From positions 21,700,001-21,764,000 of the forward strand of contig OX597832.1 in assembly GCA_951406725.2 (NCBI GenBank): a stretch of DNA of 64,000 bases. The letters run 5' to 3'. Below, in pieces: positions 21,188-61,847 of this stretch (the stretch's first letter is position 1; each line of letters opens with the position of its first letter). The notes under the pieces are model-generated. The model was not told the DNA's origin, did no database searches, and worked only from the letters and a program-made list of their open reading frames with translations. Made by a program: the position numbers and the translations under genes. Origin of the DNA: Octopus vulgaris. Taxonomy: Eukaryota.

Positions 21188-21241
<54 letters not shown>

Positions 21242-21927: not shown

Positions 21928-21968
<41 letters not shown>

Positions 21969-23276: not shown

Positions 23277-23353
<77 letters not shown>

Positions 23354-23455: not shown

Positions 23456-23493
23456 CTGTTACTCTGAGTTTCTCGTTGCCGTTCATCAGACAG
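23456..23493 (-). ncRNA. Minimal type-I hammerhead ribozyme-like motif (Penelope pLTR type)
   Basis: ctgt-CTGATGA-acg gcaa cga-GAAA-ctcagag-TA-acag. Stem I is ctgt/acag; there is one mismatch at the base of stem II. Confidence 0.45.
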
Positions 23494-24449: not shown

Positions 24450-24743
24450 ATGGCCGTTATACAAAACATTATGGAGGGAGATCGACCGAAAAGCTTGGCC
24501 GAGTTCAAAGAAATATTCAATAAATGCATTGACCAGTATTTAACAGACACTCCCACTGATTGTGTCATCTCGCAAGAGAAAGCTGGACGAATCTTGAAAG
24601 TCCTTCAGAACGATCCAGACTTCTCTGACTCGGAAATCACGTCTTATGTGAAGCAGGACAAAATCCAACTCCAAGATTTCCCTTTACTTCAATTAAAGAA
24701 TGTCTTGTGTACAGTGAAAAAGGGCCGGAAAACCGCAAATAGG
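24450..24743 (+). CDS. Coding exon 1 of a domesticated Ginger2/KRBA2-like integrase-derived gene (MAVIQNIMEG...KKGRKTANR)
   Basis: ATG at 24450 with an upstream in-frame stop. A poly-T/AG acceptor at about 24335-24362 implies a 5' UTR intron. 98 non-repetitive codons end at AGG|GTTCGT (phase 0). QLQDFPLLQLKNVLCT resembles the N-terminal region of invertebrate KRBA2-like/Ginger2 proteins. Confidence 0.8.
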
Positions 24744-26799
24744 GTTCGTTGAGTTTTAATTTGTTGTTAATGATCGCGTTGGTTTGTGTTTGGACCGTGG
24801 AAATTATGGATTGCCTCGGCGAACAAATAAACACATCTAATGTACAGTTTTAACCTCGGTGTGTGAACGTATGCGTGTGTGTCACTGTATATGTGTGTGT
24901 GACTATATGTGTGTATGTGAATGTATATGTGTGAATGTAACCACTGTGTGTGTGAGTATGCGTGTGAATGTAACCACTGTATGTGAGCGTATGCGTGACT
25001 ATATGTGTATATGTGAATATATATGTGTGACTAACCACTGTGTGTGTGTGTGTGAGTGTGCGTGTGACTGTATATGTGTGTATGTGAATATATATATATG
25101 TGTGAATGTAACCACTGTATGTGAGCGTATGCGTGACTATATGTGTGTATGTGACTGTAACCACTGTGTGTGTGTGATTATGCGTGTGAATATATGTGTT
25201 TATATCAGCTTAGTCTTCTGTTTGTTCACTTTTTAGGGACATTTTGGGGATAATTTTACTTGCATAAAATAATTGCAACGTTGCTCTTAATTTCGTTTGG
25301 TATTAAATCTTTTAGTTATGGCAAAAACTTTTACTCCCCCCCCCCGGGACGTCTCTGTATGTCATTACGGGATTTTAAATTTTGGCCACAAGTCCAGCAA
25401 TTTCGGAGTAGTTGGGGGTAAGTCGGTTGCATCGGGCCCCAGAGTTCGACGGGTACTTACTTATTTTGTCGATCCCCGAGAGGATAAAAGATCAAGTCGT
25501 TCTCGGCTGAATTTGAACTCAGAACTACGCTAAGCATTTTTGCCTGGTGGGTTAACCAGTCTGCCAGCTTGCGGCCCGCTTCCCGTATTAATTGAAATAA
25601 ATATTATAAGACCCGTGTGTGTAATTATGATTGGAGTCAGCTTTTCGTTTAGGCATAATTAGTTATATAAAAAAACTAATAAGGAATTACAAAGTTGTAA
25701 TTATTTGTACAATTATTATAAATATGATGAATGCTAAAACTATTTGAAGAATCTAATGTTGAAATTGATATTTAGAAAGTTTTCAAATGTATTGGGTTTC
25801 TCTCTCTCCAGATATTTTTTCGTCTTTTGCGAAAATGGGTTATATTTTATTTTTTTTCTGTGTGTACGTTTTGTTGTTGTTTTTTTTCTTTTAGGTTAAC
25901 ATGAAAATCGTGTTTTTGTTGTTGTTTGGTTTTGTTTCGTTTTGTAATCGTATATATTGGCGGTTTTTTGGGTTATGATCACAAACTAAAACTGGAAACC
26001 GATATTGATTTTCGGCGGGGAAGAGAAAATCGTATTTTGATTTTGGGAGGAGGGGTCTTTTTCATTTTTATTTCTGTTTTTTCTTTCTTTCTTTTTTTCT
26101 GAGAATTGAAATCTCCGTATTTTTTGAAATAGGAATTTCCAAAAAAAATATTCCAAAAAATTTTTTTTTAAATAACAAATGATGGGTGGAGTAAAAATTT
26201 TAATTATAAAAAATTTAGTTTTCGTTTTCGTTTCTTTTTTTTTTTTTTTTTTTTGACTTTTTTGCACACTTGTAATCTCCACTGTTGTTGGAAATCTAAA
26301 AAAAAACAAAGAAATTTTTGAAGAAGAAACTAAAAATATAAAAGAAACGGTGGTGGGAGGGGGCCCTATTCAACAGCTTTGCCTTTATATTCCCTGTAAT
26401 ATCAGCTTCAAATTTTGGCACAAGGGCAGCGATTTCAGGGCATGGTATTAAGTCAATTACATCGACCCCAGTCAGCACTGAATTAACCATTAAAAGGAAG
26501 GATGGTGGGGGTGGCACCACAGAAATGGTAAATGGTTCACACCACAAAAGAAATCACTTTCAACTTGCTAAAATAACATTTAGGATGCCTTCATCTCTAC
26601 TAAGTATAGAGGCAGATGTGTTGGCGCAGGAGTGGCTGTGTGGTAAGTAGCTTGCTTACCAACCACGTGGTTCTGGGTTCAGTCCCACTGCGTGGCACCT
26701 TGGGCAAGTGTCTTCTACTATAGCCTCGGGTCAGTCAAAGCTTTGTGAGTGGATTTGGTAGACGGAAACTGAAAGAAGCCCGTCGTATATATGTATGAA

Positions 26800-27080
26800 T
26801 AATAACCTGCTCTGGGTGTCAAGAGCAGTACATAGGCCAAACAAAAAATAGTTTGCGTAATAGAATGGCCCTGCACAGATCCCAAATAAAAATTCCCCAA
26901 AGCAGAAAAATAGCTTTCAGCCAACACATAGATACTTGCGCCAACAACAAAACACTAGGCTTCGGGATTTTCCCCCTCTACCAATTTAGGGACGATACAA
27001 CCTCGAGACAACGAATAAGTAAAGAGACTCTCTTTATTACAAAATACAGGCCACTTCTTAAATCTACGACAAACGATTAA
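26800..27080 (+). pseudogene. Penelope-like element GIY-YIG endonuclease C-terminal fragment
   Basis: Reads ITCSGCQEQYIGQTKNSLRNRMALHRSQI...FSQHIDTC...RISKETLFITKYRPLL. Confidence 0.75.
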
Positions 27081-28580
27081 TACACCTCAGCTTTAGAATA
27101 ACAGAAATACACACGCAAATATTACATTCCAAAGAATCCATTACAAATCAGCCCCAATCACAGCTATAATCCATAACGTGCCAACTTCAAGTCATACAAC
27201 ACCTCACTACTTCCACTCATTCATATTCTCCCTTCTCTTTTTTCTTCTTCTTCATCATCATCATTATCATCATCCTCTTCTTCTCCTTCTTCTTCATCAT
27301 CATCATCAACATCGTCATCTTCTTCTTCTTCTTCTGCTCCACCTTCTACCTCTTAACTTTATCACTAATGCTTTTTAGTATAACACCTACGCAAATTCCA
27401 TAAACAAACCTTTCAATAGAAATATTCTCCTGAATTGAACTGCAACTGCTAGCTGTTACTGACCATTCAAAATACGACAATCAAGGCACTCCCAAATTTT
27501 TCCACCCCCTCTCCTCATCAACCTCCTTCTTCTTCTTCTACCCTACCAAGAATTCACAACGACCTGGAACACACAAGTGCAAACAAGGGAGACAGAGAAA
27601 GGTAGAATGCCACTTATATTTGAACACTATACAAATATTCCTTTAAAAAACTTTTCTTTTAATTTTTCTAAATTTAATTATTTAATCGTTACAGTTGAAT
27701 AGGTCTCAAAATGACTGAAACCGGTACTGAAATGTTCTTTATAAAATTATTTTAGCATTTTCTATCTTGACTTTTTTTTCATATATATATATGTATGTTT
27801 GTGTCTGTGTTTGTCCCCCCAACATCGCTTGACAACCAATGGTGGTGTGTTTACGTCCACGTAATTTAGCGGTTCGGCAAAAGAGATCAATAGAATAAGT
27901 ACTAGGCTTACAAAGAATAAGTCCTGAGGTTGATTTGCTCGACTAGAAGAAGGAGCTAAAGTCCAAACCACTAATTAGGGATAAATTCTCGAAGGAAATG
28001 AAAAATAAAAACATTTACCATCTATTTCCTGGACTAATTTTTCTATACGCTAGGCCACTGGTAGTAAACATTTCTAAAATTCTTATTACCCTGATATTAT
28101 TAATTATATATATATATATATATACATACATATATATACACACATATATATATATATACACATGTGTTTTGGTGTACAAAACAAATATATGTATTAGTAT
28201 AACGCTCAGGAATAGATAAAGTCTTTTATGTTTCGAGCCTACGCTCTTCTACAGAAAGGGACACATATATGTATGTATGTATATATACATGTATGTATGT
28301 GTGTGTTTGGGTATATGCTAGTCTTGACATTATGTTATGGTTATGAGTGAGTACCACTGTCGTACAAGCAGTGCCATTCATTTCCAGTCTTCCTTGAAAG
28401 ACGTTCAGTCATGTGGAAACATTGCCTTACTTGGAAACAAGAAGAGAGTTAGGTGGCAGGAATGGCCAAAGATTAATCTGTCTCAACGAATTTCATTTGA
28501 CCCATGCAAGCATGAGTTTCACCGTTAAAACAAAATATTTCAAGCCTCTTGATGTTTCTGTATAATTTCCTTTTTTGCAG

Positions 28581-28709
28581 CTTAATGATGACTTGTTTGG
28601 ACGATTCCGGCGTGTTGTGCTCAAAGAGGAATTCTTTGACATGATCTACAAAGCACACAGCCAACATGGCAGCAGAAATCACATAGGCTTTGAGAAGACA
28701 ATATTTCAA
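28581..28709 (+). CDS. Coding exon 2 (LNDDLFGRFRRVVLKEEFFDMIYKAHSQHGSRNHIGFEKTIFQ), first half of the integrase HHCC zinc finger
   Basis: Acceptor ttttttgcag, donor CAA|GTAGGA, phase 0/0. The H...H-x-G-x-x-K-T pattern is typical of Integrase_H2C2 and NOL4-like domains. Confidence 0.9.
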
Positions 28710-29122
28710 GTAGGATCTTCTTTATATTCCTTCTTGCAAATTTCATTCTTTGCTTTTTTGATGCCATATTTCTCTTTAAATGCCCTACTTCTGTTTAACT
28801 TTCTGTGTAACTCATTCTCTCTTCCTCCCCTTCTATCCTCCCTCTCTCTTTCTCCCTCTCTATCCCCCACTATCTCCCTCCTCTCTGGCCCTCCCACTCT
28901 CTTCCTCCCTCTCTATCCTCCCACTCTCTCCTCTATCCCTACCTTGCTATCCCCTACTCTCTCCCTCTTTTCTCTTCCTCCCACTCTCTCCCTCTTCTCT
29001 CCCCCACTCTCTCCTCTCTATCCCTCCTACTCTTTCCACCTCTCTATCCCTCCCACTCTCTTCTTCCCTTCTCTCTCTCTCTCTCTCTCTCTCATTCTCC
29101 CATTTTCTTCGTTCCTCTTTAG

Positions 29123-29752
29123 TTGAAACGCAATTATTCACACATCCCCTGCGAGGTGGTGCTGAAGTTCATGAAGATGTGTCCAGTCTGCGCCGGTTCC
29201 GTGGCCGAAGAGAACATCTCCCTCTTCTGTCTGAAATACGAAGACGACATCCCCGCCGACCCAAAGTGCCAACAGAACCCGGGAAAATACATCAAGAAAG
29301 AAAAACCGAAAAAGGTGAAGAAATCACCGACAACGATGAGGAAGGCGGCTCGAGCGAAGGCCAAAACCACCACGACGACAACAACAACAACAGTCAAAGC
29401 AAAAACAAAAACGAAGGTTACATCAGCGAAAAAGACAAAAGCGACAGCAAAAAAGACAGAGACATCAACACGAAAAGCAAAGAGGACATCAACAGCGATG
29501 ACAACCGCAACAACAAGAGAAACGACTTCAGCTCGTCAACCCAAAGCTAACACCAATATCAAAATAAGCAATAAGATTTTTGGAGAGAGACCATCACAGC
29601 AAGACCACGACTACGTCCGCACCCGACATCATTTACCAATTACATATTCATTGGCAGGACCCAAGAATAGCTCTATACCAAATTTCAGAGATTATACTAA
29701 GAACCAGCGCGTGCATGTTTTAAGGGCAAGTTACTTTATGGCTGTTGGCAGA
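29123..29752 (+). CDS. Coding exon 3 (LKRNYSHIPCEVVLKFMKMCPVC...K/T/A-rich linker...RASYFMAVGR)
   Basis: A long polypyrimidine tract and ttcctctttag acceptor, donor AGA|GTGAGT, 210 open codons. CPVC completes the HHCC finger. The exon ends in a motif equivalent to PI-x-S-x-F-x-x-RGQ, which precedes the integrase core. Confidence 0.9.
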
Positions 29753-29964
29753 GTGAGTTATTTAATTTTTTATATATTTCTTTGTTTTTGTTCAGTTCTA
29801 TATTTAAGAGATGAGGAATTATGTACATTATTTACATTCAACGGATGTTTGTCCTCATCTTGTTTGTTGTTAACAATGTTTTGGCTGATATACTCTCCAG
29901 CCTTTGTCAGGTATCTTGGGAAAATTTCAAACTGGGGTTCTCATTCCTAAGATATTTTTCAATG

Positions 29965-30005
<41 letters not shown>

Positions 30006-30006
<1 letters not shown>

Positions 30007-30165
30007 TATGTCTAACTTTCGCTTTACAAGTTGGCTCCAAGTCTCACCCAGAGACCTCAAGAGACAACAGGTTGGAAGTTCATGTTGTTGTTATGCCTAG
30101 TGTGCCATATATTGGGGCGGGGGGGTTGTACTAGTGAATGTCCAAAAAAAAAAACGAAAATTAAA

Positions 30166-30208
<43 letters not shown>

Positions 30209-30367
30209 TATGTCTAACTTTCGCTTTACAAGTTGGCTCCAAGTCTCACCCAGAGACCTCAAGAGACAACAGGTTGGAAGTTCATGTTGTTGTTATGCCT
30301 AGTGTGCCATATATTGGGGCGGGGGGTTGTACTAGTGAATGTCCAAAAAAAAAAAACGAAAATTAAA

Positions 30368-30410
<43 letters not shown>

Positions 30411-30567
30411 TATGTCTAACTTTCGCTTTACAAGTTGGCTCCAAGTCTCACCCAGAGACCTCAAGAGACAACAGGTTGGAAGTTCATGTTGTTGTTATGC
30501 CTAGTGTGCCATATATTGGGGCGGGGGTTGTACTAGTGAATGTCCAAAAAAAAAAACGAAAATTAAA

Positions 30568-30633
<66 letters not shown>
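30006..30633. repeat. Three near-identical 202-bp tandem units separated by (ATT)n
   Basis: CTATGTCTAACTTTCGCTTTACAAG starts at 30006, 30208 and 30410. Confidence 0.9.
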
Positions 30634-30634
<1 letters not shown>

Positions 30635-30859
30635 CCTGTGGGATGAAGTTACAATAATAGACAGAGAACACCACTGGAAAATACGAAAACTAAAAGAAGC
30701 AGCACATACGCTAAGCAGACTGAGTGCAGATATGAATAGCATATGGGAACCAGTATTAAGGAAGGATAGGAAAATATTAGATTTATAAGCCCTAAAAATT
30801 CGCTCCATAATTGCCCACAGGCATAACCCCAAGATTCCGAGTTCAATTCCTGGCAGTGA

Positions 30860-30897
<38 letters not shown>

Positions 30898-31000
30898 TCA
30901 TAAAATACCTTAGGAATGAGAACCCAGGTTCGAAATTTCCCCCAGATACCTGATGAAGGCTGGAGGGTGTATATCAGCCGAACCGTTTTGCTTTTGTTAT
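30634..31000 (+). mobile_element. Penelope-like element 3' fragment (GIY-YIG tail plus pLTR); an inverted pLTR copy lies at about 29850-29960
   Basis: WDEVTIIDREHHWKIRKLKEAAH...SADMNSIWEPVL*, followed by the CCTGATGAAGGCTGG...TCAGCCGAA motif. Its reverse complement is at about 29870-29955. Confidence 0.7.
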
Positions 31001-31957
31001 TCTTCATACTCTTCAATACCCTGCTATTCAAGATTTGGGAGTTTTTATAATTTTCATATGTAACTACTCCTTTTTTTCTCTCCTTGTTGTTTGATACTCA
31101 ATAATTTCACATGGAGGAGGCGTGTGTGGCTTAGTGGTTAAGCTGTTGGACTCATGGTTGTAAGATTGTGGTTTTGATTCCCGGACCGGGCAGTGTGTTG
31201 TCTTCTTCAGCAAGATACTTCACTTCATGTTGCTCCAGTCCACTCAGCTGTAGAAATGAGTTTAGCTTGGGGAGGGATGGGCTCCACCAGGCTTTCTCGC
31301 CCTATATATGCAACATAGCTGCAGTGTCCAAACGACCCCCAAGGGGTTAAGGGACTTGTTATAATAGTAATTTCAGCCTATACAATCAATATATATCATC
31401 ATCGTTGTTTAACATCCATTTTCCATGCTGGCATGGGTTGGACGATTTGACCGAGCCAGCGACTGTACCAGGCTCCAATCTAATCTGGCAATGTTTCTAC
31501 AGCTGGATGCCCTTCCTAATGCCAACCACTTTGAGAGTGTAGTGGGTGCTTTTTACATGCCACCAGCACAGGAGCCAGCCAGTCAGGCCTGGCATCAATC
31601 ACTTTCAGATAGTGCTTTTTATGTGCCACCTGCACGGGCATTGATCACATTCAGATAGTGCTTTTTACATGTCACTTGCACAGGGGCCAGAGGGAGCTAG
31701 CATCGACCACATTTGGATGGTGATTATATATAATAATAATATTGTTTAACTCTATTTGATTATTTATTTAACTATTATCATTAACCTGAAGATTGACTTT
31801 AAATTTATTTCAATTGAATTTAAACTTAATTGTAATTCGAATTTAATTGTAGCCATGAAATGCACGTAGTGTTTTTACTTATTATATTATATATTTATCA
31901 TTCACTTTATACTTTTTGAGATCTAGTTATATGTTATATTTTTTTTTTAAAATTCTA

Positions 31958-31994
<37 letters not shown>

Positions 31995-32016
31995 TGTTAT
32001 ATTTGTCATTTTCCAG

Positions 32017-32404
32017 GTAACCATCATTGATATCAAGGAGCTGCAAGCTGAAACTGTGCCATCTAACCAGTTTACACTAGTGGTACATTACGTTGACCTC
32101 TGGTCAAAGTACAGCATCTTCTGGCCATTGTGTAAGAAAGACATCAGTGAACTGGCATTGGGCATTGCCAAAAACGTATTCGCCTACTTTGGCGCTCCAA
32201 GACAGTTAATCTACAATGGCTGCACCATGCAGGCTGCCGAACAACTGGAAGAGGTGCTTCGTGTGTGGTCATCCCAAATTAATGTTACCACAAGTATCTT
32301 AGAAGATCCATTGGCGTCATCAGGACCATTACATTGGAGAATTTTTGAAGATCTGAAAACCCTTCCGCAAGACTCTTGGGAAAGTCATCTCTCAAAGTTA
32401 CAAT
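32017..32404 (+). CDS. Coding exon 4, integrase (rve)-fold core with degenerate DDE (VTIIDIKE...HYVDLWSKYSIFWPL...FAYFGAPRQLIYNG...SWESHLSKLQ)
   Basis: Acceptor ttttccag, donor T|GTAAAT (phase 1). Aligns by eye to the KRBA2/Ginger2 pattern QxDLID...HYxDHxSKFxxLxPL...FxxFGxPxILQSDNG...WxxxLxxxQ. Confidence 0.9.
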
Positions 32405-32434
32405 GTAAATTTAACAGTTTCTTATATATAACTA

Positions 32435-32727
32435 CTAGCAGTATCGCCTGGCGTTGCTCGGGTTTGTAAGGGAAATAACTATATAAGCATTTTAGAGAGT
32501 TACTTCCCTTATATAAAACCGAGCGAAAATGGATTAAAAATGGGGTAAAATGATGGTAAATTTTTTTTTAAATCATAGACGCGCACTAATACCCAGAAGG
32601 GCTCGATATGAATCACGACTATAAGATACCCGCTTTTGGTTAAACTGCACCGCAAAATGTGGGAGTGGTTAGGAATCTAAATTGGAGTAGACAGACTCTC
32701 ACACAACTTCACTTTTATATATAAAGA
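32435..32727 (-). mobile_element. Helitron-like element, copy 2 (intron 4)
   Basis: Same termini and interior as 9066-9461, but shorter. Confidence 0.7.
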
Positions 32728-33861
32728 TATAGTTAGAAACCAATATGCATGTTTGTGCTTATATGTATGTATGAATATATATCATCATCATCATTGGCAG
32801 TGTTTCTACAGCTGGATGCCCTTCCTAACGCCAACCACTCCGAGAGTGTAGTGGGTGCTTTTTACATGCCACTGACACAGAGGCTAGAGGGAGCTGGCAT
32901 CGACCACATTCGGATGGTGCTTTTATGTGCCACCAGCACGGGAGCCAAACTATATAGGCGTTAGGAAGGGCATCCAGCTGTAGAAACTCTACCAGATCAA
33001 GACTGGGGCCTGGTGCAGCCATCTGGTTGCCAGCCCTCAGTCAAAACCGTCCAACCCATGCTAGCATGGAAAACGGACGTTAAAGGATGATGATGATGAT
33101 GATGATGTACATTGCGAAGGTGCATAGTCCAGTGGTTAGGGCATCGGGCTCACAATCATGAGATAGTGAGTTCCATTCCCAGACCGGGTTGTATGTTTTG
33201 TTCTTGAGCAAGATACTTTATTTCATGTTGTTCCAGTTCACTCAGCTGTTGGAATGAGTTACGACATCACTGGTGCCAAGCTGTATCAGCCTTTGCCTTT
33301 CCTTTGGATAACATCGGTGGCACAGAGAGGGAATTCTAATATGAATCAGTGACTGCTGGTCTTCCATAAGAACAACCTTGCCAAGACTTGTGCCTAGGAG
33401 GGAAACTTTCTAGGTGCAATCCCACGGTCATTCATGACTGAAGGGGTTTTTATTTGTATATTAATGACATGTAGGGAACACCATATTTTGTTCTGTTCTC
33501 ATAATATACTATAAGGTATATTATAAAAATGTTTAATAAACATTGTAGCATATTATGTTTGCAGAACAAAATATGGTGTCCCCTACACGTCATATTTTCG
33601 TAGTAAAAATTTTTGCCAACATAGCATGGTAGTCCTGGTTTAGGACGAATGTTGCTGTAATTTAGCCCCAGGAGACATCATCTCCAGCTGGCTATACGAC
33701 ATGATCTGTGCCCTTATTTTTTCGAACAAGGGAATCGAGCACCCCCACTCAGGACTGCCATGTTATGTGGTGGCAAAAATCTTTGCTCCAAAGTACTGTT
33801 GCTGAATATCTCTCGTGAGATTTAAAAATAGTAATCTATTAATATTTTCGTTCAAGCTTCA

Positions 33862-34352
33862 AGTATAGTGGGAGGGACCTTTGTTGGATGAAATAAGTAA
33901 GAGTAGTGTAGTAGGAAGGGCCATTTGTTGGCTGAAATAAATAAGTAGTAGAATGGTGGGAGGGTCCTTAAGTAGCAGTAGGAGTATAGTGGGAGGAGCC
34001 TTTGTTGGATGAAATAAGTAACAGTATTGTTGTGGGAGGGTTCTTAAGTAGCAGTAATTGTATCGTGGGAGGGGCCTTTGATGGCTGAAATAGATTAGTA
34101 ACAGAATAGTGGAAGGGTCCTTAAGTAGCAGTAGGCGTATAGTGGGAGGAGCCTTTGTTGGATGAAATGAGTAACAGTAGTGTACTGGGAGGGTTCTTAA
34201 GTAGCAGTAATTGTATAGTGGGAGGGGCCTTTGATGGCTGAAATAAGTATAGTAGGAAGGGCTATTTGTTGGCTGAAATAAATAAGTAGTAGAATGGTGG
34301 GAGGGTCCTTAAGTAGCAGTAGGAGTATTGTGGGAGGGTCTTTTGTTGGCTC
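33862..34352. repeat. Purine-rich minisatellite (AGTATAGTGGGAGGGGCCTTTG / TCCTTAAGTAGCAGTA units)
   Basis: Alternating ~30-40-bp units are visible by eye in intron 4. Confidence 0.8.
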
Positions 34353-34458
34353 ACATTTTAGGTAAAGGGCAGTTCATAGTTGACTACAGACCTTACACTT
34401 GGCTGCAAGGCCTTCATCTGATGCCCTAAATCATTCCATATTTCACTTGTCTTTTCAG

Positions 34459-34572
34459 ACTTAGCCAATACAAAGTTTGTGAAAACCCATGGTCGTGTCA
34501 CACCATACGAGGCTGTATTCGGTCACATGCCCTTAACAGAAACGTTTGTTAGTCAATCTGATACCCAGAGCA
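34459..34572 (+). CDS. Coding exon 5 (YLANTKFVKTHGRVTPYEAVFGHMPLTETFVSQSDTQS), end of the integrase core
   Basis: Acceptor cttttcag, donor A|GTAAGT, phase 1/1. N...H...TPYEAVFG is the conserved integrase C-terminal motif. The exon is absent from the ORF track because it is short. Confidence 0.9.
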
Positions 34573-34714
34573 GTAAGTACCCAGTTATTTTTACAGCCCT
34601 TCATTAATCTTATGTTGTTCTTTCTCTATCTTCATCTTCTTCCTCTTCCTTCCATTACCCTCTTCTCCTCCTTTTATCTTCATCAACCCTTTTTTTTTTG
34701 TCAAGACCCGGCAG

Positions 34715-35562
34715 GACAAGTGAGACCATAACCCATGGCCTCTACCTTATGCATACCTTTCCTGCTTGGGACACAAAACGCTACTTGTGAAGACCTGTTG
34801 AGGCAAGTGAGAATCAGAATCAAAATCGAAATCAATCAACATCAATGGAAATTGTAGCTGTGATACCAGTGCCGGTGGCACGTAAGCGAACCATCCGAAC
34901 GTGGCCGTTGCCAGTGCCGCCCCGACGGGCCTCCGTGCTGGTGGCACGTAAAGAGCACCATCCAATCATGGCCATTGCCAGCCTCGCCTGGCTCCCGTGC
35001 TAGTGGCACATAAAAAGCACCATCCGACCGTGGCCATTTGCCAGCTCCGTCTGGCAACTGTGCCGGTGGCATGTAAAAAGCACCATCCGATCGTGGCCGT
35101 TGCCAGCTTCGCCTGGCTCCCATGCTGGTGGCACATAAAAAGCACCATCCAACCGTGGCCGTTTGCCAGCCCCGTCTGGCAACTGTGCCGGTGGCACGTA
35201 AAAAGCACCATCCAATCGTGGCCGTTGCCAGCTTCGCCTGGCTCCTGTGCTGGTGGCACATAAAAAGCACCATCCGATCGTGGCCGTTGCCAGCCTTGCC
35301 TGGCTCCCGTGCTGGTGGCACATAAAAAAGCACCATCCGACCGTGGCCGTTTGCCAGCCCTGTCTGGCAGCTGTGCCGGTGGCACGTAAAAAGCACCCAC
35401 TACACTCACGGAGTGGTTGGTGTTAGGAAGGGCATCCAGCTGTAGAAACACTGCCAGATCAGACTGGGCCTGGTGCATCCTTCTGGCTTCCCAGACCCCA
35501 GTTGAACCGTCCAACCCATGCTAGCATGGAAAGCGGATGCTAAACGACGATGATGATGATGA
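34715..35562 (+). mobile_element. V-domain-like SINE or repeat with internal ~60-bp minisatellite and (GAT)n tail (other copies at about 31396, 32796-33105, 40510-41035, 46135, 46640, 47921, 55130)
   Basis: The GGCACGTAAAAAGCACCATCC unit is repeated about 9 times, followed by TTAGGAAGGGCATCCAGCTGTAGAAAC and a TAAACGACGATGATGATG tail. Confidence 0.7.
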
Positions 35563-37544: not shown

Positions 37545-37835
37545 AGACCCCTGCCAATGGGAACATGACCAATGTCAGGAAAAAGCAACGAAGTTCTTCT
37601 GGGAGCAAAGGATCGAAGGCCTCCACTGCCGGTGACTCGGTTCCTGCTAACGCCAGCAGCAACACTCCCAACGATGCCAGTTCGGGGGTGGTGTACGAAG
37701 CCCAGCTAGGCCCCCTCTCGTCGCCGCCTTATCCTGTTGCCTGCACCATCAACATTGCCAACAGAAGTCCAAGGTCTCTCCTGCCCAGTACCCTGACCGT
37801 GCTGCAGCAGACAACAGCACCGACACCCATGTCTG
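37545..37835 (+). CDS. Coding exon 6, S/T/P-rich low-complexity region
   Basis: Acceptor tttctctcctccag, phase 1 compatible. Open GC-richer reading ([20 protein letters not shown]...). The best phase-1 donor is TCT G|GTAATG; this donor is less certain. Confidence 0.72.
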
Positions 37836-37939
37836 GTAATGCAAATCAGTTGATAAACGCTTCTACTACCATTGCTGTTGATGTTGTTAGTGTTTTGTGT
37901 GTGTGTGTGGATAGGTGAGGGTGTGTAGACAGACATGTG

Positions 37940-38040
37940 GTTGGTAGGTAGATTAGTAGGTGGGTAGGTAGTTGGGTAGGTAGGTAGATAGATAGATAAA
38001 TAGGTAGGTAGGTAGATAGATAAATAGGTAGGTAGGTAGG

Positions 38041-38103
<63 letters not shown>

Positions 38104-38160
38104 GTAGATAGATAGATAGATAGGTAGATAGATAGGTAGATAGATAGGTAGATTGGTAGG

Positions 38161-38195
<35 letters not shown>

Positions 38196-38236
38196 ATAGG
38201 TAGGTAGGTAGATAGATAAATAGGTAGGTAAGTAGG

Positions 38237-38287
<51 letters not shown>

Positions 38288-38352
38288 GTAGATAGATAGG
38301 TAGATAGATAGATAGGTAGATAGATAGGTAGATAGATAGGTAGATTGGTAGG

Positions 38353-38383
<31 letters not shown>

Positions 38384-38670
38384 GTACATAGATAGGTAGG
38401 TAGATAGATAGATAACACAGACAGACAAATGATAGATAGATAGACAGACAGGTAGACAACATAAGTAAGACAGACAGACAGATAGATGACATAAAATAGA
38501 TAGATAGACAGACAGACAGATAGGTAGGTGCATAGACAGACAGAAAGATAGAATGATAGACAGACAGACAGATAGATAGACAAATAGACAACACAGGTAA
38601 GACAGACAGGTAGATAAAGAGATAGATAGATACACAGATAGATAGATAGATAGATAGACAAATAGATAGG
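37940..38670. repeat. Large compound (GATA/GGTA/GACA)n microsatellite, representative of many (TA)n, (TG)n, (GATA)n, (ATT)n, (CAT)n and (GAA)n tracts
   Basis: Directly visible. It explains the YLSI/CVCV/IYIY/poly-I ORFs. Confidence 0.95.
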
Positions 38671-40073
38671 TAGGTGCAGGTATGGCTTTGCATTTAAAAA
38701 GCTTGCTCCCCAACCATGCGGTTTCAGGTTGAGTTCCACTGGATGGTAGCTTAAACTAATGTCTTCTATTAAAGCCCTAGGCCAACCCAATCTTGATGAA
38801 TGGATTTGGTGGACAGAAACTGAAGGAAGCCTGATGTGTGTGTGTGTGTGTCCTCGTTTTGACCTCACGTGTTAATTCTAAATGACTGTCACTGCAACAC
38901 AAGCTGTGTCATTCGTGTCCAGCATTCTACAGAAATATGCTTGACCATGGGACGACGTTGCCTTGCTTGGAAGCAGGTGAGGGTTGGTGACAGGAAGAGC
39001 GTCCAGCCATGGTGGAAAAAAAAAAAATCTTCCTCCTCAACGAATACTGTCCAACCTACAAAAGCTCGGGAAAGTGGACAACGACAATGCAGTGTTGTGA
39101 TGGATTACCTTGGGGAGGGGAAAAAACGTTATTGATAATGTTTGCATGAAATTTAAGTGTTCTCACATTACAACATCGTCATCATCATCATCATCACTAC
39201 AATCATCACCACCATTATCATCATCATCACCATCATCAACATCATCATCACCATCATCAACATCATCATCACCATCATCATCATAACCACAATCATCACC
39301 ACCATCATCACTACAATCATCACCACCATTATCATCATCATCACCATCATCAACATCAACATTATCATCATCACCATCATCATCATAACCACAATCATCA
39401 CCACCATCATCGTTATCATCAACATCACCACCATCATCGTCATCATCATCATAACCACAATCATCACCACCATCATCGTCATCATCAACATCACCATCAT
39501 CATCATCCCCATCAACATCATCATCATCAACATCATCATCACCATTATCATCACCACCACCATCATCACCATCATCATCATCATCACCATTATCATCATC
39601 AACATCATCATTGGACAAGTGTCTTCTACTATAGCCTCAGGCCAACCAAAGCTTTGTGAGTGGATTTGGTAGACAGAAACTGAAAGAAGCCCATCATATA
39701 TATGTGTATATATATATATATATATTATATATATGTGTGTGTGTCTGTGTTTGTCCCACCAACATCGCTTAACAACCAATGGTGGTGTGTTTACATCCCT
39801 GTAACTTAGCGGTTCGGCAAAGAGACCGATAGAATAAGTACTAGGCTTACAAAGAATAAGTCCTGGGGTCGATTTGCTTGACTAAAGGTGTTGCTCCAGC
39901 ATGGCTGCAGTCAAATCACTGAAACAAGTAAAAGAGTCTGTTAATTTTCCTTTTCCTTTTTCTTTTTCCCTTCCTCTCCTTTCCTCACACCTTTACTCCT
40001 ATTCATTACTCCTTCCTCTCTCCAAACACCTGTGTTTTTCCAACACGTTTTCTTTTTTGTTTTCTTTTTGCAG

Positions 40074-40379
40074 ATTCGCTGACGTATGTCGTGTCCAAAA
40101 CGGAACCGACCAGCGATTCCGATACGCTGCTGATGGAGGTGGACAACAACACTGTCATGACAACTGCTGCGACATCACCAATGATGACGGCCTGCTCCTC
40201 TGACTCCCTCTCCGTTGCCGCCAACACCACCGTCACGGATTCTGCGACCACTTCTATAGGTGACATTCAAGTCAAGATGGAAACCGTTGATGATACGAGC
40301 AATGAACTAGCTGAGATCAAAACAAGCGATGCCATACACAACCAGGCTACAATATCTGCCATTGAAACAGTTGATGCAG
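40074..40379 (+). CDS. Coding exon 7, T/S/D-rich region (DSLTYVVSKTEPTSDSD...IQVKMET...ETVDA)
   Basis: Strong acceptor ttttctttttgcag, donor G|GTAAAT, phase 1/1, open frame. Contains a VKME SUMO-consensus-like site. Confidence 0.75.
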
Positions 40380-41797
40380 GTAAATTTAATTAAGTTCTAC
40401 CATATTTGATGGCACCTGGAAAATGCCAAGAGATATTAGGCTTGATGCATATTCAGGTGCAAATAATATTCAGTGCATAGAAGTATGTAATATTTAACTT
40501 GTTAGCCTTCATCATCATCATCATCATCATCATCGTTTAACGTCCGTTTTCTGTGCTAGCATGGGTTGGATGGTTTGACTGAGGTCTGGCGAATCAGATG
40601 GCTGCACCAGGCCCAGTCTGATCTGGCAGTGTTTCTACAGCTGGATGCCCTTCCTAACGCCAACCACTCCGTGAGTGTAGTGGGTGCTTTTTACGTTCCA
40701 CCGGCACAGGTGCCAGACGAGTCTGGCAACGACCACGAACGGATGGTGCTTTTTATGTGCCACCGGCACGAGGCCAGTCGGGGCGGCGCTGGCAACGGCC
40801 ACGTTTGGATGGTTCTCTTATGTGCCACTGGCACTAGTATCACAGCTGCAATTTCCATTGATGTTGATCGATTTCGATTCTCACTTGCCTCAACAGGTCT
40901 TCACAAGTAGAGTTTTGTGTCCCAAGAAGGAAAGGTATGCATAAGTGGGCTGGCTACATCCCGTGTAGGGGCCATGGGTTATGGTCTCACTTGTCCTGCC
41001 GGGTCTTCTCACGCACAGCATACTTCCAAAGGTCTCATCATCAACATCATCGTTTAACATCCGCTTTCCATGCTAGCATGGAATATTTTGAGGGAGATTT
41101 AGCTGTTGCTTTGCAGCCATTTCAGTGGCTTCATAGAGGCTCCCTCATTTGCTCATGGATATATTCATTTACTGTTATTGTTGCTTAAATACCAGTTCAG
41201 CACAAATAGTGCATTCCATCTGTGACCATTCCATCATTTTGCCTCTTTAATTATTTTTGGTTAATTTTTTGTGGGGGGGAGGTTTAGTAACTATTTACAA
41301 ACTGGAGTCTGGTGCAGCTTACCAACTCTGGTCAAACCGTCCGTGGGATGGGCTACTCGACCTGAAGAAAATTCTAACTGGGCCCCACCTGCAAGGTCAT
41401 GTGTTGTTTATCTTGATATGAGATCTGTTTTTTTTTTTTTTGTTACCCGTGCGGGCCAACAAATCTTGATATGAGATCACCATGTCACGCACATATGGTT
41501 GTAATGCATGTGCCTGGTGTAACCCTTATCAGACGGGTAGTCATGACGGGTATACTGGGCTTCGTATATTTTACCCCAGTGTCGCTTTCATGGCATGCAC
41601 TGCTCTCGATTGAACCATGGACAACAAATGTTAAACGATGATGATGATGATGATGTACCGAAGGCAGTTTAATCAACCAGTACCCTGCAAGGCAGTACTC
41701 CAGCATAAATCACTGAGCAATTACGAATACAATTAAAATAACAGTATTTATTTCTTGTTTGTAATAACGTCTACAGGAGTGGCTGTGTAGTAAGTAG

Positions 41798-42636
41798 AAA
41801 AAAAAGAGAAACGGAGCGTCGCCGGCGGATTGCTACACGCAGACGGCGGTTCCCGAGTATCCCGGGTCCTCTCAGGCGGGTATGCCGCCTGAGGGACAAT
41901 TCGTGGAAGATTTTGTGCTCCTCTTTTTTAAAGAAAAAAAGGTGGAAAGCACCATAAGAAAAGTGAGAAAGAGAGGACGTTGGGAGGTACTCCGGTCCTG
42001 TACGGAGAACCCCGAATGGCCTTCGCAGTTGGCTGCGGGGGTCGTGGGAAGGGCTGATCTACACAGGATCGTGAATTCCTGCCCGGCGGACTCCTTCGAA
42101 ATTATACCTCTGGACACCGACCTGACCAGCGAGTATTGCCTCAATGAGGCAAGAGCACTGGTCGGCCGGGTCACATAGGCTGTGTAACATCTTTGTAACA
42201 TGTGGAAGAGGAGGTTTATTGCCTCCTCCAAAATTTGTAAAATTTGTAATTGAATGTTAATTTAAACATTTTTGTAACATGTTGAAGAGGAGGTTTATTG
42301 CCTCCTCTAAAATTTGTAAAGTGAATATCATGTGAACATTTTGTAACATTTTGAAGAGGAGGTTTATTGCCTCCTCTAAAATTTGTAAAGTGAATATCAT
42401 GTGAACATTTTGTAACATTTTGAAGAGGAGGTTTATTGCCTCCTCTAAAATTTGTAAATTGTAAACCATTGTATTAAATGTAATTATTGAACATTGTTTT
42501 AGAGAAGCGAGAGTCGGCGGGCGCTTTTTAACTTCTCCCATCACCATCTTCATCCACCACCACCATCATCCATTAATGTCCTTGTCCAGCCCGTAGCTAC
42601 TCTGTGTGCTGCCCTAGTGGCAAAATTGTTGAAATA
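41798..42636 (+). mobile_element. 5'-truncated retroposed insertion inside a SINE: ORF C-terminus plus four stem-loop repeats
   Basis: The SINE is split at AAGTAG, which is duplicated at 41792-41797 and 42637-42642. The frame is open from the left edge to TAG at 42178. Four 69-79-bp repeats follow. Confidence 0.65.
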
Positions 42637-43850
42637 AAGTAGCTTGCTAACCAACCACATGGTTCCGGGTTCAGCAAGTGTCTTCTGCTATAGCCCCGGG
42701 CTGACCAATGCCTTGTGAGTGGATTTGGTAGACGGAAGCTGAAAGAAGCCTGTCGTATATATGTATATATATATATATATATGTATGTGTGTCTGTGTTT
42801 GTCCCCCTAGCATTGCTTGACAACCGATGCTGGTGTGTTTACGTCCCCGTGACTTAGCGGTTCGGCAAAAGAGACCGATAGAATAAGTACTGGGCTTACA
42901 AAGAATAAGTCCCGGGGTCGATTTGCTCGACTAAAGGCGGTGCTCCAGCATGGCCGCAGTCAAATGACTGAAACAAATAAAAGAGTAAAAGAGAGTTGTC
43001 TCCCTTAATTGTTCTTTTTTTTTTAACCCTAGGTCACCCCTAAGCAAGCATTCCTGTTTAAAGGTGTTCAAACTATAACCGTCTTTAAATTCATTTGTTT
43101 TTAACGGTAGGTTGTAATTTATGGGAGGTTTGGCTGCTGTTTTTAGCAGGTTGTGTTTCCATGTAGTGATTGATTCCTTCTTTCGATCGGATTCGTTCGT
43201 TGTTGTTCTTGTTGTTGTTGTCTCCATTGCATCTTTCATAAACGGAGTCCAAGTTGTGACCACCCTTCGTTTGCAGAATCGCTTGCATGCCGGACTAAAA
43301 AGCTGTTTGGCATTTCGTCCGTCTTTATGTTCTGAGTTCGAATTCCACTGAGGCCGACTTTTGCCTTTCATCCTGTCAGGGCCGATAAAATAAGTACCAG
43401 CCGAATACTGGGGGAGTCGATTACATCGACTCCCCCAAAAATTCCAAGCCTTATTGTTGTTGTTGTTGGTGTTTTGCTCCTTGACAACCGTAAGTGAGCA
43501 AGACTTAATCAAAGACGCTCCAAGTCGTGGCCAGCCCTCATTGGCTCGGGTATACGTTGTGTAGTTTCACGTCAGCTTCGATCGAGCTGGTCTCTAATCA
43601 AATGCGTTCCAGCCGTAACCATCCCTCGTTGACATGGGTTTATTATTGTTGTTTCGATCTAGGTGAATTTCAATCGAACCAGCCTATGTTAAAATACGTT
43701 CCAACCGTCATTGACTCGGGTTTATTATTATTGTTGTTTTGCTCACGTCAGAATCGATCGAGTAGACCTTTTATCAGAAGCGTTCCAACCGTGACCCTCT
43801 CTCAGTTGCTCAACGTTATCTATATTCATTTATTTATTTATTCTTAAAGT

Positions 43851-44977
43851 GGCAAGCTGGCAGAAACGTTAGCACGCCGGGCGGGATACTTAGCGGTATT
43901 TCGTCTGCCGCTACGTTCTGAGTTCAAATTCCGCCGAGGTCGACTTTGCCTTTCATCCTTTCGGGGTCGATAAATTAAGTAGCAGTTACGCACTGGGGTC
44001 GATGTAATCGACTTGACCCGTTTGTCTGTCCTTGTTTGTCCCCTCTGTGTTTAGCCCCTTGTGGGTAGTAAAGAAATAGGTATTTCGTCTGCCGCTACGT
44101 TCTGAGTTCAAATTCCGCCGAGGTTGACTTTGCCTTTCATCCTTTGGGAGTCGATTAAATAAGTACCAGTTACGCACTGGGGTCGATATAATCGACTTAA
44201 TCCGTTTGTCTGTCCTTGTTTGTCCTCTTTGTGTTTAGCCCCCTGTGGGTAGTAAAGAAATAGGTATTTCGTCTGCCGCTTTACGTTCTGAGTTCAAATT
44301 CCGCCGAGGTTGACTTTGCCTTTCATCCTTAGGGAGTCGATTAAATAAGTACCAGTTACGCACTGGGGTCGATATAATCGACTTAATCCGTTTGTCTGTC
44401 CTTGTTTGTCCACTCTAAGTTTAGCCCCTTGTGGGTAGTAAAGAAATAGGTATTTCGTCTGCCGCTACGTTCTGAGTTCAAATTCCGCCGAGGTCGACTT
44501 TGCCTTTCATCCTTTCGGGGTCGATTAAATAAGTACCCGTTACGCACCGGGGTCAATATAATCGACTTAATCCGTTTGTCTGTCCTTGTTTGTCCCCTCT
44601 GTGTTTAGCCCCTTGTGGGTAGTAAAGAAATAGGTAATTCGTCTGACGTTACGTTCTGAGTTCAAATTCCGCCGAGGTCGACTTTGCCTTTCATCCTTTC
44701 GGGGTCGATAAAGTAAGTACCAGTTACGCACTGGGGTCGATATAATCGACTTAATCCGTTTGTCCTCTCTGTGTTTAGCCCCTTGTAGGTAGTAAAGAAA
44801 TAGGTATTTCGTCTGTCTTTACATTCTGAGTTCAAATTCCGCCGAGATCGACTTTGCTCTTCATCCTTTCGGGATCGATAAATTAAGTACCAGTTGCGTA
44901 CTGGGGTCGATCTAATCGACTGCTCCCCTCGCCTCCCCAAAAATCTCGGACCTTGTGCCTAGAATAGAAAAGAATAT
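43851..44977 (+). mobile_element. Head-to-tail array of about 6 Meta/MESC-like SINE units (other copies at about 5013, 6475-7090, 11374-11605 minus, 15680-16097 minus, 18099-18482, 22716-22956 minus, 37095-37475, 51468-51690 minus)
   Basis: GGCGAGCTGGCAGAAACGTTAG head, B-box GAGTTCAAATTCC and central GCCTTTCATCCTTTCGGGGTCGATAAA..AGTACC. Period about 170-187 bp. Confidence 0.85.
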
Positions 44978-45485
44978 TTGTCCTCGCTGCATCGACAGCT
45001 TCAGTATGCTAAAGAGTTGCCTCCCTTATCCCCCTTCAGCTGTTTATTTTGTATCCAAGTAGGGAAGACGGGAATTGGGTGATGGCCAATTTCTTACATC
45101 AACAAAAGAAACGCAGTAGATAAAATTGGTGAACTGAAATAACTTCATCGTCATCGTCATCATCATTATCATGCTCCGATGTGGTGTAACAACCAATCCC
45201 CCAGCCGGTCGGGATTCTCAGTGCTGGTTGTACTATTCATCCTTTCCAACGCTGAATACGAAACGTGACTCATGAGACGTGATTTTTTCTCTGAGTCACC
45301 GTCTCACCCGTGTAAGTCAATCCCCCCTCGCAAGATTACTCATTCACGGTAGCGAGGACTGAAGCGGCATTATATGTAGTGTTTTGCCTCATGGTTAGAG
45401 TGTTGTTCTCACGATCGCTAGGTCATGGTTTCGATTCCTAGAGATATGTTAGTGATTCATAAGATTTCAAAACAGTAGAACAATC

Positions 45486-45903
45486 GGATCTTTTCGGTTT
45501 GAACGGCAGTTTTTTTCTAGCGGTGTCATATATGAAATTATCACCCATAATTATGACCCTAGTATCGATCTATTGCATTTCAATCTGTTTTAGGGTTAGG
45601 GGTGGGAGGAAGGGTATCTTTTTTTTCTTCAGAAATGTAAATAAACCCAATCTGTTTCCTAAACGAGGGACATATTCATACGGCACAGAATGTTTTCCAC
45701 CTCAATAGACAGTCATTGATTGGCTGAAATTGCAGAAATTGAAGAAAAAAAACCAACAAATATCTTAGAAACTATAGAATTTTCTCAATAAAGCCAAGAG
45801 AAAAAGATGTTTTATAAACACATTCTGCCAGTATACGAAGTTTAAAAGTGTTTAGTTATGTGGAAATTATTTTTAAAAACTGCAGTTCAAACCGAAAAGA
45901 TCC
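45486..45903. mobile_element. Same GG-ended MITE family, copy 2
   Basis: Same TIRs and interior as 5824-6251, with a perfect 8-bp TSD GAACAATC at 45478-45485 and 45904-45911. Confidence 0.85.
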
Positions 45904-46026
45904 GAACAATCCATGAACACAATGGGAACACACTTAGGCTCCAGGGGTGTTTACAAGTTAATTCAACCCAACCTGGAGCCTATCATTTAAGTACTTGATT
46001 CTCTCCTAAATCCCTTAATATTGTAT

Positions 46027-46061
<35 letters not shown>

Positions 46062-46973
46062 AATTTATGTGAATATCAGTTTCAGACCTTTTTTCCAGAG
46101 ATGCAATTAAACACACATTCAAACTTCCATACAGTCATCATCGTTCATCATATAACGTCCGCTTTCCATGCTAGCATGGGTTGGATGATTTGACAGATGG
46201 CTGCACCAGGCTCCAATCTGATCTGGCAAAGTTTCTACAGCTGAATGCCCTTCCTAACGCCAACCACTCCGAGAGTGTAGTGGGTGCTTTTACATGTCAC
46301 CGGCATGAGGGCCAGTCAGGCAGTACTGGCAATGGCCGCGCTCAAATGGTGTTTTTTGCGTGCCACCTGGGAGCCAGTCCAAAATGTATTCAGTCTGGCA
46401 ACAGATGAGTATCATTTGAGGAATAGAGAAATCAGAAGTTATACATGAACTAATTCAAGTTGCATGCTCACATAGTGCAGTAATCAGGCTGGCTTGTATA
46501 GCATTCTGTGCTCATTTGAACAATTACTGGTTTGAGCATGGTAATCTATGCATGCCTGTCAAATTACTGCACTGTCTTAACATGAAACTTAAAGTAGCTC
46601 ACGTATAATTCCTGTATTCATTAAATTATATACATACATCACCATCATCATCATAGTTTAATGTTTACTTTCCATTTTGGCATGGTTTGGCCAGTTTGAC
46701 TGAGATCCGACAAGCCAGTGGGCTGCACCAGGCTCCACTCTGATCTGGCAATGTTTCTACAGCTGGATGCCCTTTCTAACACCAACCACACTGAGAGTGT
46801 AGTGGGTGCATTTTATGTGCCACCAGCATAGGAGCCAATCAGGGGGCACTGGCATCAACCATGTTTGGATGGTGCATTTCACATGCCACCAGCACGGGAG
46901 CCAGTCTGGGGGCACTGGCATCGACCATGTAAATATATGTATGCATGCATATGTGTGTATGTGTGTGTATATA

Positions 46974-47018
<45 letters not shown>

Positions 47019-47065
47019 GTCATGATAGATCGGTAGCCACTACACATTTTTTTCTCTCCTTGTTT

Positions 47066-47101
47066 CTTTCTGTGGAAGAGCGTAGGCTCGAAACGTTAAA
47101 G
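47066..47101 (+). ncRNA. Minimal hammerhead-like variant (copies also at 12911-12946 minus and 28223-28258 minus)
   Basis: cttt-CTGT(G/A)GA-a-gagc gtag gctc-GAAA-cg-T(T/A)-aaag. Core position 6 is U instead of A. Confidence 0.4.
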
Positions 47102-48401
47102 ACTTTTTCAATTCCCGAGCATTATAGTAATACATCTGTTTGTTGTCTACACCACCTGTCTTCATCTTTTGTTTTTTTCATTAATTCTTCCTATATATAT
47201 ATGGGTGTGTGTTAAAATATTGCAGTTATTTGAAATCAATTTTTAGAGTAACAACTAAACATTTGTTGGTGGTGTTACTCTGTGTTGATTGTAGAATCAA
47301 ATTCATTGTGAAAATTAAGTTGGTTAGGATAGGGCTTTCTTTCCACAAGTGGACAAATATTATTTCACTTGCTGAACAAGATGATGGGCGAAATTCGAAG
47401 TCCCAGTTAAGTCTGTCTTCACAACAAATTCCTATAATACATATATATATTTATATGTTTATATATATATATATATATATTTTTTTTTACTTGTTTCAGT
47501 CATTTGACTGTGGCCATGCTAGAGCACCGCCTTTAGTCGAACAAATCAACCCCGGGACTTATTCTTCGTAAGCCTAGTACTTATTCTATCGGTCTCTTTT
47601 GCCGAAACGCTAAGTGACGGGGACATAAACACACCAGCATCGGTTGTCAAGCAATGCTAGGGGAACAAACACAGAAACACATATATACATATACATATAT
47701 ATGACAGGCTTCTTTCAGTTTCCGTCTACCAAATCCACTTACAAGGCATTGATCGGCCCGGGGCTATAGCAGAAGACACTTGCCCAAGATGCCACGCAGT
47801 GAGACTGAACCCGGAACCATGTGGTTGGTTAGCAAGCTACTTACCACACAGCCATTCCTGCGCCTATATATATATATATAATATTTTATGTAAAATATAA
47901 TACACACATATGCAGATATATCATCATCATCATCATCATCGTTTAACGTCCGCTTTCCATGCTAGCATGGGTTGGACGGTTTGACGCAGGGCTGGTAAAC
48001 CAGATGGCTGCACCAGGCTCCAGTCTTGATCTGGCAGAGTTTCTACAGCTGGATGCCCTTCCTAACGCCAACCACTCTGAGAGTGTTGTAGGTGCTTTTA
48101 CGTGCCACTGGCATGGAAGCCTGTAAGCCGCTCTGGCAACGACCACACTTAGATGGTGCTTTTAACACCCTACTTGCACGGGGCACAAGTGCCAGTAAGG
48201 CAATCACACTCGAATGGTGCCTTTTATGTGCCACTGGCACGGAAGCCGGTTAGCCGCTCTGTCAACGATCACACTCGGATGGTGCTCGTGCCCGTCATCG
48301 AATTTTACTTAGATTTTGATTTTGATTATATATTATACATATATGTATATATATATATATACTTAGGTGTATTATCTTTTTTTTTTTTTTTTGTATTTTA
48401 G

Positions 48402-48712
48402 CCATTTCAATGATCAAAATGCATCAGCTTGAGAAGGATAATTCCATAACCGATTCGACAAATAAAAAGAAAATTCTAAAGAAACCAACTCTAAAACTAC
48501 CACCTAGAAGCAAGAACACCAATTCCGCCAAAATTCTGAAATGCTATCGATTCAAAGTCAAACAGAATCTTAAGACGTATGCTCACTACAAGGCCCGCAG
48601 TGCACAGCATAAAATAATCAATGAAGCGTTAGCAAACCTCGATCTGGTGGAACATGTCAGGGGTGCCCTTCCTGAATCTTCCGAACCAAATCCAGATCCT
48701 CAACATCCATAG
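48402..48712 (+). CDS. Terminal coding exon 8 (AISMIKMHQLEKD...NKKKILKKPTLKLPPRSK...PDPQHP*)
   Basis: Poly-T plus ttttag acceptor, phase 1 compatible with exon 7. Open to TAG at 48712 and followed by AT-rich, 3'UTR-like sequence. Contains a basic NLS-like cluster. Confidence 0.7.
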
Positions 48713-61420: not shown

Positions 61421-61652
61421 TTAAACAACTCAGATTTCAGCCACTCTGCAAACGAACAGCCGATCAGCAAGCACCTTTACCAAACAAATTAACCATTTAA
61501 GAAACCATTCTGTTTAATTAAATAAATCAAATATAAAAACAAAATAATTTGAAACAAATAATTAACAATACTAATTAAATTAATAAATAAAGGTTGCTTT
61601 TACTGATTTTTTTTTAATAAAAGGACAAATTTTGGTAAAAGAAAAGGAAATC

Positions 61653-61847
61653 ATGACAGAGAATGAAGTCATTGAAGAACGGGTTCTGAATTTGGAACCA
61701 GTTGCCAAGACTGAATTATTGCCTGAAAGAGAAATTAAATTCTATGTGGCTTTCACGGAAGCAGCTGATCCGAAACTTGGTGGAATTCACAAGGAAGAAT
61801 TTATGGATGTTGCCAAACAGATAGGATTTAGTAAAATAACCATTGAG
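61653..61847 (+). CDS. First coding exon of a probable EF-hand (calmodulin-like) protein gene that continues beyond the window
   Basis: Branch-like tactgat, poly-T and AAAG acceptor (exon from about 61624), ATG at 61653, donor GAG|GTGAGT. FYVAFTEAADPKLGGIHKEEFMDVAKQIG resembles a degenerate helix-loop-helix EF-hand. Confidence 0.6.

Follow-up and report, generated by a model that had tools for sequence, protein, structure and literature searches.

The 64,000-nucleotide stretch of Octopus vulgaris DNA analyzed here (contig OX597832.1, positions 21,700,001 to 21,764,000, forward strand; hereafter the window) carries, at 24450..48712, a spliced, single-copy gene originating from a now dead Ginger2-like transposase, which we interpret with moderate confidence as a likely non-catalytic nuclear DNA or chromatin scaffold with an optional, predicted EF-hand ending. 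That it is a domesticated host gene we consider very probable, since domestication is supported by alignment, shared introns, fold, single copy number, splicing and a proxy for constraint.

Once joined, the eight exons make 2463 nt translated in one frame into 820 amino acids (aa), with a single stop at the end; all introns have GT-AG ends, with phases 0,0,0,1,1,1,1, and the seven junctions are identical to those of O. sinensis LOC115222060 isoform X2. An earlier note, made from the sequence alone, had proposed these exons and their uninterrupted frame, and splice sites, phases, translation and the O. sinensis model agree with it; the positions therefore stand, while the set is incomplete, exon 6 being skippable and exon 8 one of two endings. 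The note had also suggested that the gene was possibly uncharacterized, and indeed the Octopus RefSeq entries to which the model corresponds carry no characterization, their automatic names (“calmodulin 5”, “nucleoside hydrolase-like”) being misleading. A query with exon 4 (211 candidates) returned three proteins, all from Octopus. The database model named for O. vulgaris is the exon-6-skipped form, letter-for-letter identical to the window, and was not treated as independent evidence.

Descent from an intron-bearing Ginger2-like transposase, as first suggested in the earlier note, is supported by alignment, shared introns and fold. The core, searched profile-free against 1.84 billion representatives, returned 42 hits, namely the gene itself, an ENA record (P0015; 55% identity, E 1.6e-38) and a further 40 of lesser strength; among these, 10 were looked up, and the named ones were “SCAND3-like” or hypothetical proteins from fish, mussel, whelk, mantis shrimp, moth and sponge. 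In the resulting alignment, which holds 32 of the 41 non-self hits (nine omitted), homology spans aa 10-165 and 340-505. Exon 1 (24450..24743, aa 1-98) encodes the N-terminal domain inherited from the transposase; exon 2 (28581..28709, aa 99-141) contributes the zinc-finger histidines H124 (28656-28658) and H132 (28680-28682); by translation and alignment, exon 3 (29123..29752, aa 142-351) holds C161, C164, the linker and the start of the core; exon 4 (32017..32404, aa 352-480) holds the integrase-fold core, identified by alignment and fold and present as a single copy; and exon 5 (34459..34572), again by translation and alignment, closes it (YLANT...TPYEAVFG). Both the HHCC finger and the TPYEAVFG motif had been recognized beforehand. 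The four H2C2 residues lie on conserved alignment columns, while the Pfam Integrase_H2C2 match stays under the cut-off (E 0.03). Between C164 and the first catalytic Asp the gene has a linker of 188 aa, as compared to 17-27 aa in 10 of 12 relatives. The translation has no YPYY and no GPY/F motif; Ginger2 elements are defined by H2C2 and an Asp-Asp-Glu (DDE) core without YPYY or GPY/F (PMC2836005), contain introns (PMC10871703) and gave rise to SCAND3 and KRBA2 (PMC3575427).

A metagenome scan yielded 80 loci, five with intron-like gaps, among which L038 has an intact DDE triad and four introns with phases 0,0,0,1; its introns 2-4 match those of the octopus gene to the residue, and intron 1, in a loop prone to indels, is at most two residues away; L094 and L088 have introns 3 and 4 in common with the octopus gene. 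The first four introns of the gene were therefore inherited from the transposon. No terminal repeats were found at seven relative loci checked, mostly short contigs. A tree was built from 25 rows, leaving out nine short fragments and four EF rows, and was rooted on four sequences of other motif types; it held no named Repbase Ginger2, KRBA2 or Gypsy references, SCAND3-like proteins being the nearest hits. In it, Octopus is joined with P0015 (100/100), both on one long stem inside the D(H/L)WSK group (100/99); a clade with the four other-motif, QDHLTK-type rows was not rejected (p-AU, approximately unbiased test, 0.21).

Among the relatives, P0020 (from Nucella lapillus), P0053, P0050, P0017 and P0021 are Ginger2-like proteins whose second Asp or Glu has degenerated, two of them carrying long linker inserts, and may represent independent domestications in gastropods, a fish and a crustacean; a common origin of the octopus gene with the linker-bearing Nucella P0020 and P0053 was rejected (p-AU 0.0007). 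Orthology to NOL4 was likewise discarded: NOL4 and NOL4L presumably have a similar N-terminal HHCC-containing region, but their helix-turn-helix (PF23079) is absent from the octopus protein and maps to a separate locus on another contig, where the genome has its own NOL4-domain gene (L107, G000:C7:40931985-40932173). Pfam scans of the protein revealed no KRAB, SCAN or hATd domain, and no literature linking NOL4, integrase and zinc finger was found.

We hold with high confidence that the core is catalytically dead and its DDE triad lost. The octopus gene has T353 (32020-32022), and P0015 an R, in the first-Asp column, where 22 of the 25 relatives with a residue have D; the second column is D in 25 of 32 rows, P0015 included, and N418 (32215-32217) here; a Glu comes after the SQG motif in 16 of the 31 other rows, while the octopus gene has no acid at 449-461 and, depending on the aligner, H457 (32332-32334) or a gap at this position. 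Both Asp registers agree between alignment and hidden Markov model (HMM), and an intron shared with an intact-DDE relative fixes T353 as the first; D356 was considered for this role and rejected, as the shared intron and both alignments place T353 there. The loss of all three acids claimed in the earlier note is thus upheld. The loop preceding the Glu has basic residues and no acids in 23 of 27 relatives, yet is acidic both here and in P0015.

The core keeps a predicted integrase fold. AlphaFold, whose use had been proposed beforehand and which was run with a 38-row alignment, modeled aa 10-165 and 345-505, and with them the exon 1 domain, at a predicted local distance difference test (pLDDT) value of about 90, with an integrase-like core where T353 lies in the first strand and N418 ends the fourth. 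Its best structural match was the foamy virus integrase core (Z 15.8, root-mean-square deviation 3.1, 160 aligned; Foldseek E 8.7e-7); residue 353 would fall on foamy D128 and HIV-1 D64 if the match runs ungapped from its range starts. A sequence search of solved structures gave no match for the transposase part. An intact fold, the nearby acids D356, D448 and E462 and the H457 common to P0015 could suit a nuclease or recombinase whose active site was rebuilt, or else a recent inert transposon copy; nevertheless, the first Asp is replaced by T here and by R in P0015, the gene occurs once with no flanking inverted repeats, its introns are repeat-filled and 2-8 kb long and its domains are constrained, and we regard either possibility as very improbable.

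Exons 1, 4 and 8 each have one match in the 2.8-Gb genome, with no dispersed copies of them found genome-wide; copy number was a test proposed in the earlier note. Its description of clean exons among repeat-rich introns was accurate, 0.2% of exon bases against 66% of intron bases being repeated (self-BLAST, 164 kb), and its statement that no pair of terminal inverted repeats and target-site duplications was evident agrees with a search in which none of 36 inverted matches around the gene was low-copy (18001-24449 vs. 34.6-64 kb, with 6.4 kb upstream as query). Compared with O. bimaculoides, which with O. sinensis provides the orthologues of the gene, the folded domains show 10 changes in 331 positions and the linkers 45 in 273 (Fisher p 8e-9), a difference in amino acids that serves as a proxy for constraint. 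Exons 7-8, absent from the O. bimaculoides models, differ from O. sinensis at one of 205 positions. The O. bimaculoides counterparts of the transposase-derived gene and of the EF-hand gene are on contigs of equal length. P0015 lies about 30 times farther than O. bimaculoides (tree paths 0.94 vs. 0.032) and has 28 derived residues in common with the gene; it is likely an orthologue, also dead, and may come from another cephalopod.

Since spliced joins come from a single-copy gene, the gene is transcribed. Contigs of four runs from four studies, picked from 24 listed, were placed on exon 7 (40074..40379), an acidic, Ser/Thr-rich and disordered exon known from translation and transcript contigs, whose donor picks either ending; there was no RNA entry on record among the 24, and the RNA nature of the runs was judged from their spliced contigs. 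Contig cover halts at both exon 7 edges in all four runs, with no cover of the introns, and the letter-exact overhangs reach exon 6 in four runs, exon 5 in one, exon 8 in four and exon 9 in one, which gives the spliced expression that the earlier note had asked of RNA data. Exon 6 (37545..37835), a Ser/Thr-rich cassette, was included in 4/4 runs and skipped in 1/4, both forms occurring among the database isoforms. The run contigs cover the exon 7 junctions, those within exons 1-5 being based on RefSeq models, and contig depth gives no isoform shares. Exon 8 (48402..48712), the basic last exon (103 aa, isoelectric point, pI, 10), had no known family or look-alike, a result uninformative in either direction.

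Exon 8 had been taken for the sole ending, and here the first description fell short: exon 7 also joins, in frame, position 61624, the start of exon 9 (61624..61847), first of a calmodulin-like EF-hand module whose further exons lie about 22-24 kb past the window (G000:C19:21786472-21786569 and 21788074-21788278). Three database isoforms swap exon 8 for this module, which is single copy in the genome and contains EF-hand pairs with calcium ligands (Pfam EF-hand_7, E 7e-17); graded by the canonical loop pattern, loops 3 and 4 are near-canonical and loops 1 and 2 degenerate. A single-sequence fold of this isoform was discarded (pLDDT 35). Where exon 7 is joined to exon 9, EF-hands 3 and 4 would make that part of the protein pool responsive to calcium.

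The splice to this second ending may be a read-through into a separate downstream calmodulin-like gene, because the junction was seen in one of four runs with a short overlap on exon 7, and the EF-hand protein is also annotated standalone: 165-aa orthologues begin at the Met at 61653 in exon 9, with 4 differences in O. bimaculoides, 20 in Argonauta hians and 43-44 in other records. The in-frame join, moreover, crosses nine sense codons, for which we estimate the chance at roughly 1 in 5. On the other side, two of the three O. sinensis isoforms (X1 and X3) carry the junction in their annotation, as does the set named for O. vulgaris, and the 741-base contig of run X10 continues unbroken from 30 unambiguous bases of exon 7 through 710 more, no rival 5′ branch being retained; it demonstrates the junction alone and not a complete transcript. 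Nor was a first exon of the EF-hand gene's own identified, the single CpG-rich candidate (57150-57430) being dropped as a repeat with at least 40 dispersed copies. These copies are 85-90% identical, and the repeat, whose donor-like end lies 4.2 kb before exon 9, could still provide the EF-hand gene with a promoter. On balance, a read-through with no function of its own appears slightly the better explanation of this ending, and somewhat more likely than a functional fusion; that the fusion protein is made and functional we consider possible, but less likely than not.

As to what the protein does, the case for a nuclear DNA or chromatin role is evenly poised, and it is built on the predicted properties of its parts. 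Zinc finger and dead core would serve oligomerization and protein contacts, while a Lys/Thr-rich, disordered insert at 29273..29575 (aa 192-292; 31 K+R, 3 D+E, pI 11.6), a candidate segment for nucleic-acid binding and nuclear import, would supply affinity for nucleic acids and entry into the nucleus. The acidic Ser/Thr tail would recruit partners, and the alternative ending is predicted to add a calcium-binding calmodulin-like module.

Basic disordered inserts bind RNA as readily as DNA, and the same domesticated gene might instead act in the cytoplasm, as an RNA-binding protein or scaffold, for instance in germ cells, as proposed for Imagin of crustaceans. Such a role is a serious rival because Imagin has the same anatomy, with an intact H2C2 finger, a dead core, a disordered tail and a single copy, and is found in the cytosol of oocytes (PMC12863088); the octopus gene has also lost the transposases' basic loop. 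However, basic clusters resembling nuclear signals occur at aa 199-207, 244 and 531, and Imagin derives from Ginger1 through an independent event. We consider the cytoplasmic role rather unlikely, though it is the main rival.

A protein that kept its oligomerizing parts and lost catalysis might also act as a dominant-negative repressor, or as a silencing guide, against Ginger2 or other integrase-bearing elements. The genome does contain many weak integrase hits to the transposase query, together with decayed, intronless QDHLTK-type relics, four of which were read (L012, L013, L014 and L018) and would belong to one KRBA2-like transposon family from a separate, later Ginger2-like invasion. Nonetheless, the case for a role in regulating transposable elements suffers from the lack of any close relative of the donor family among the hits: the best match, 42% identical (E 7.8e-13), is a relic of the other motif type, in a search that scored the best 150 of 744 candidates and is thus a lower bound. 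The gene is furthermore single copy and conserved rather than diversifying, and we deem this function quite improbable.

Several observations weigh against the nuclear scaffold that we favor and the evidence assembled for it. Basic and acidic residues balance in the core (16 K+R, 16 D+E), leaving it without net basic charge, and Imagin, the closest studied analogue, is the cytosolic protein mentioned above. P0015 retains the second Asp, and MAFFT and HMMER place the Glu region differently. Constraint rests on amino-acid differences and not on the ratio of nonsynonymous to synonymous substitution rates (dN/dS), exons 7-8 having been compared with O. sinensis alone, and the search with the transposase part returned no named squid, cuttlefish or Argonauta protein. 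For the EF-hand ending, the junction in a single run, its 30 bases of exon 7 and the standalone annotation in O. bimaculoides and Argonauta count in the same direction.

Other features were observed in and around the gene. Upstream, the CpG-rich, non-repeated segment 20540-20718 ends in a strong donor (CAG/GTAATT) and an acceptor lies at 24358, just before the start codon; the segment is a candidate 5′ untranslated first exon of the transposase-derived gene. The Helitron-like intron element mentioned in the earlier note can be seen on the minus strand at about 32430-32730, beginning about 25 bases past the exon 4 donor; it is non-autonomous, and its type is read from its ends. Two tandem arrays lie in introns, one of 202 bp (29968-30609, 3.2 copies, 99% alike) and one of 184 bp (43895-44921, 5.6 copies), and a mariner-type transposase fragment lies at 19372-19692 (Pfam Transposase_1, E 1e-16). 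Open reading frames of 126 aa (41798-42175) and 148 aa (22296-22739, minus strand), in non-repeated CpG-rich DNA and with no Pfam match, are probably retroelement debris. An Rfam scan of the window gave no match. Downstream of the window by 37-58 kb, exons of a leucine-rich-repeat gene on the minus strand (L005-L007), presumably resembling LRRC40, provide a synteny marker; the one exon scanned had no Pfam hit.

Domesticated dead Ginger-type integrases are already known, Imagin and KRBA2 among them. Like Imagin of malacostracan crustaceans, the octopus gene is a single-copy, multi-exon domesticated Ginger-type transposase that kept the H2C2 finger and core fold, lost the DDE triad and has a disordered tail; unlike Imagin, which comes from Ginger1 and has the YPYY motif (PMC12863088), it is Ginger2-like without YPYY, has an extended basic insert as well as the alternative EF-hand ending, and arose independently in a different phylum. 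With mammalian KRBA2 and SCAND3 it shares the combination of a host domain with an integrase domain of Ginger2 origin (PMC3575427), but the host domain here is not KRAB, SCAN or hATd: it is C-terminal, alternative and calmodulin-like, and the motif is of the D(H/L)WSK rather than the QDHLTK type, with the tree reservation given above. Ginger2/TDD transposons have the same H2C2 finger and integrase core, the same lack of YPYY and GPY/F and, in intact relatives, the same four introns (PMC2836005, PMC10871703), whereas their 50-180 bp inverted repeats and 4-bp target duplication contrast with a gene of 24-64 kb, in one copy, with no such repeats found and the DDE triad gone. As in host-transposase fusion genes, a transposase-derived part is spliced to a host domain (10.1101/2020.05.07.082677), although in this case a calcium sensor lying downstream, which is also present as a gene of its own, supplies the host part.

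The gene itself was not found in the literature by accession or topic, supplements, where a large screen could list it, not being covered; neither domesticated transposases of cephalopods nor, judging by titles and abstracts, a transposase-EF-hand fusion were found. Few domesticated transposases have been described outside vertebrates, and the origin of this one can be followed through its introns, exon by exon. Should the EF-hand isoform exist as a protein, calcium signaling would be tied to a transposase-derived scaffold, and the fusion gene would have been caught while its two partners still exist apart. A bolder interpretation, which we consider improbable, is an ancient cephalopod innovation in which a dead Ginger2 chromatin scaffold acquires, by regulated choice of its last exons, either a basic tail or a calmodulin-like calcium sensor; if true, octopus cells would possess a transposase-derived gene regulator switched by calcium, a kind for which there is no description so far.

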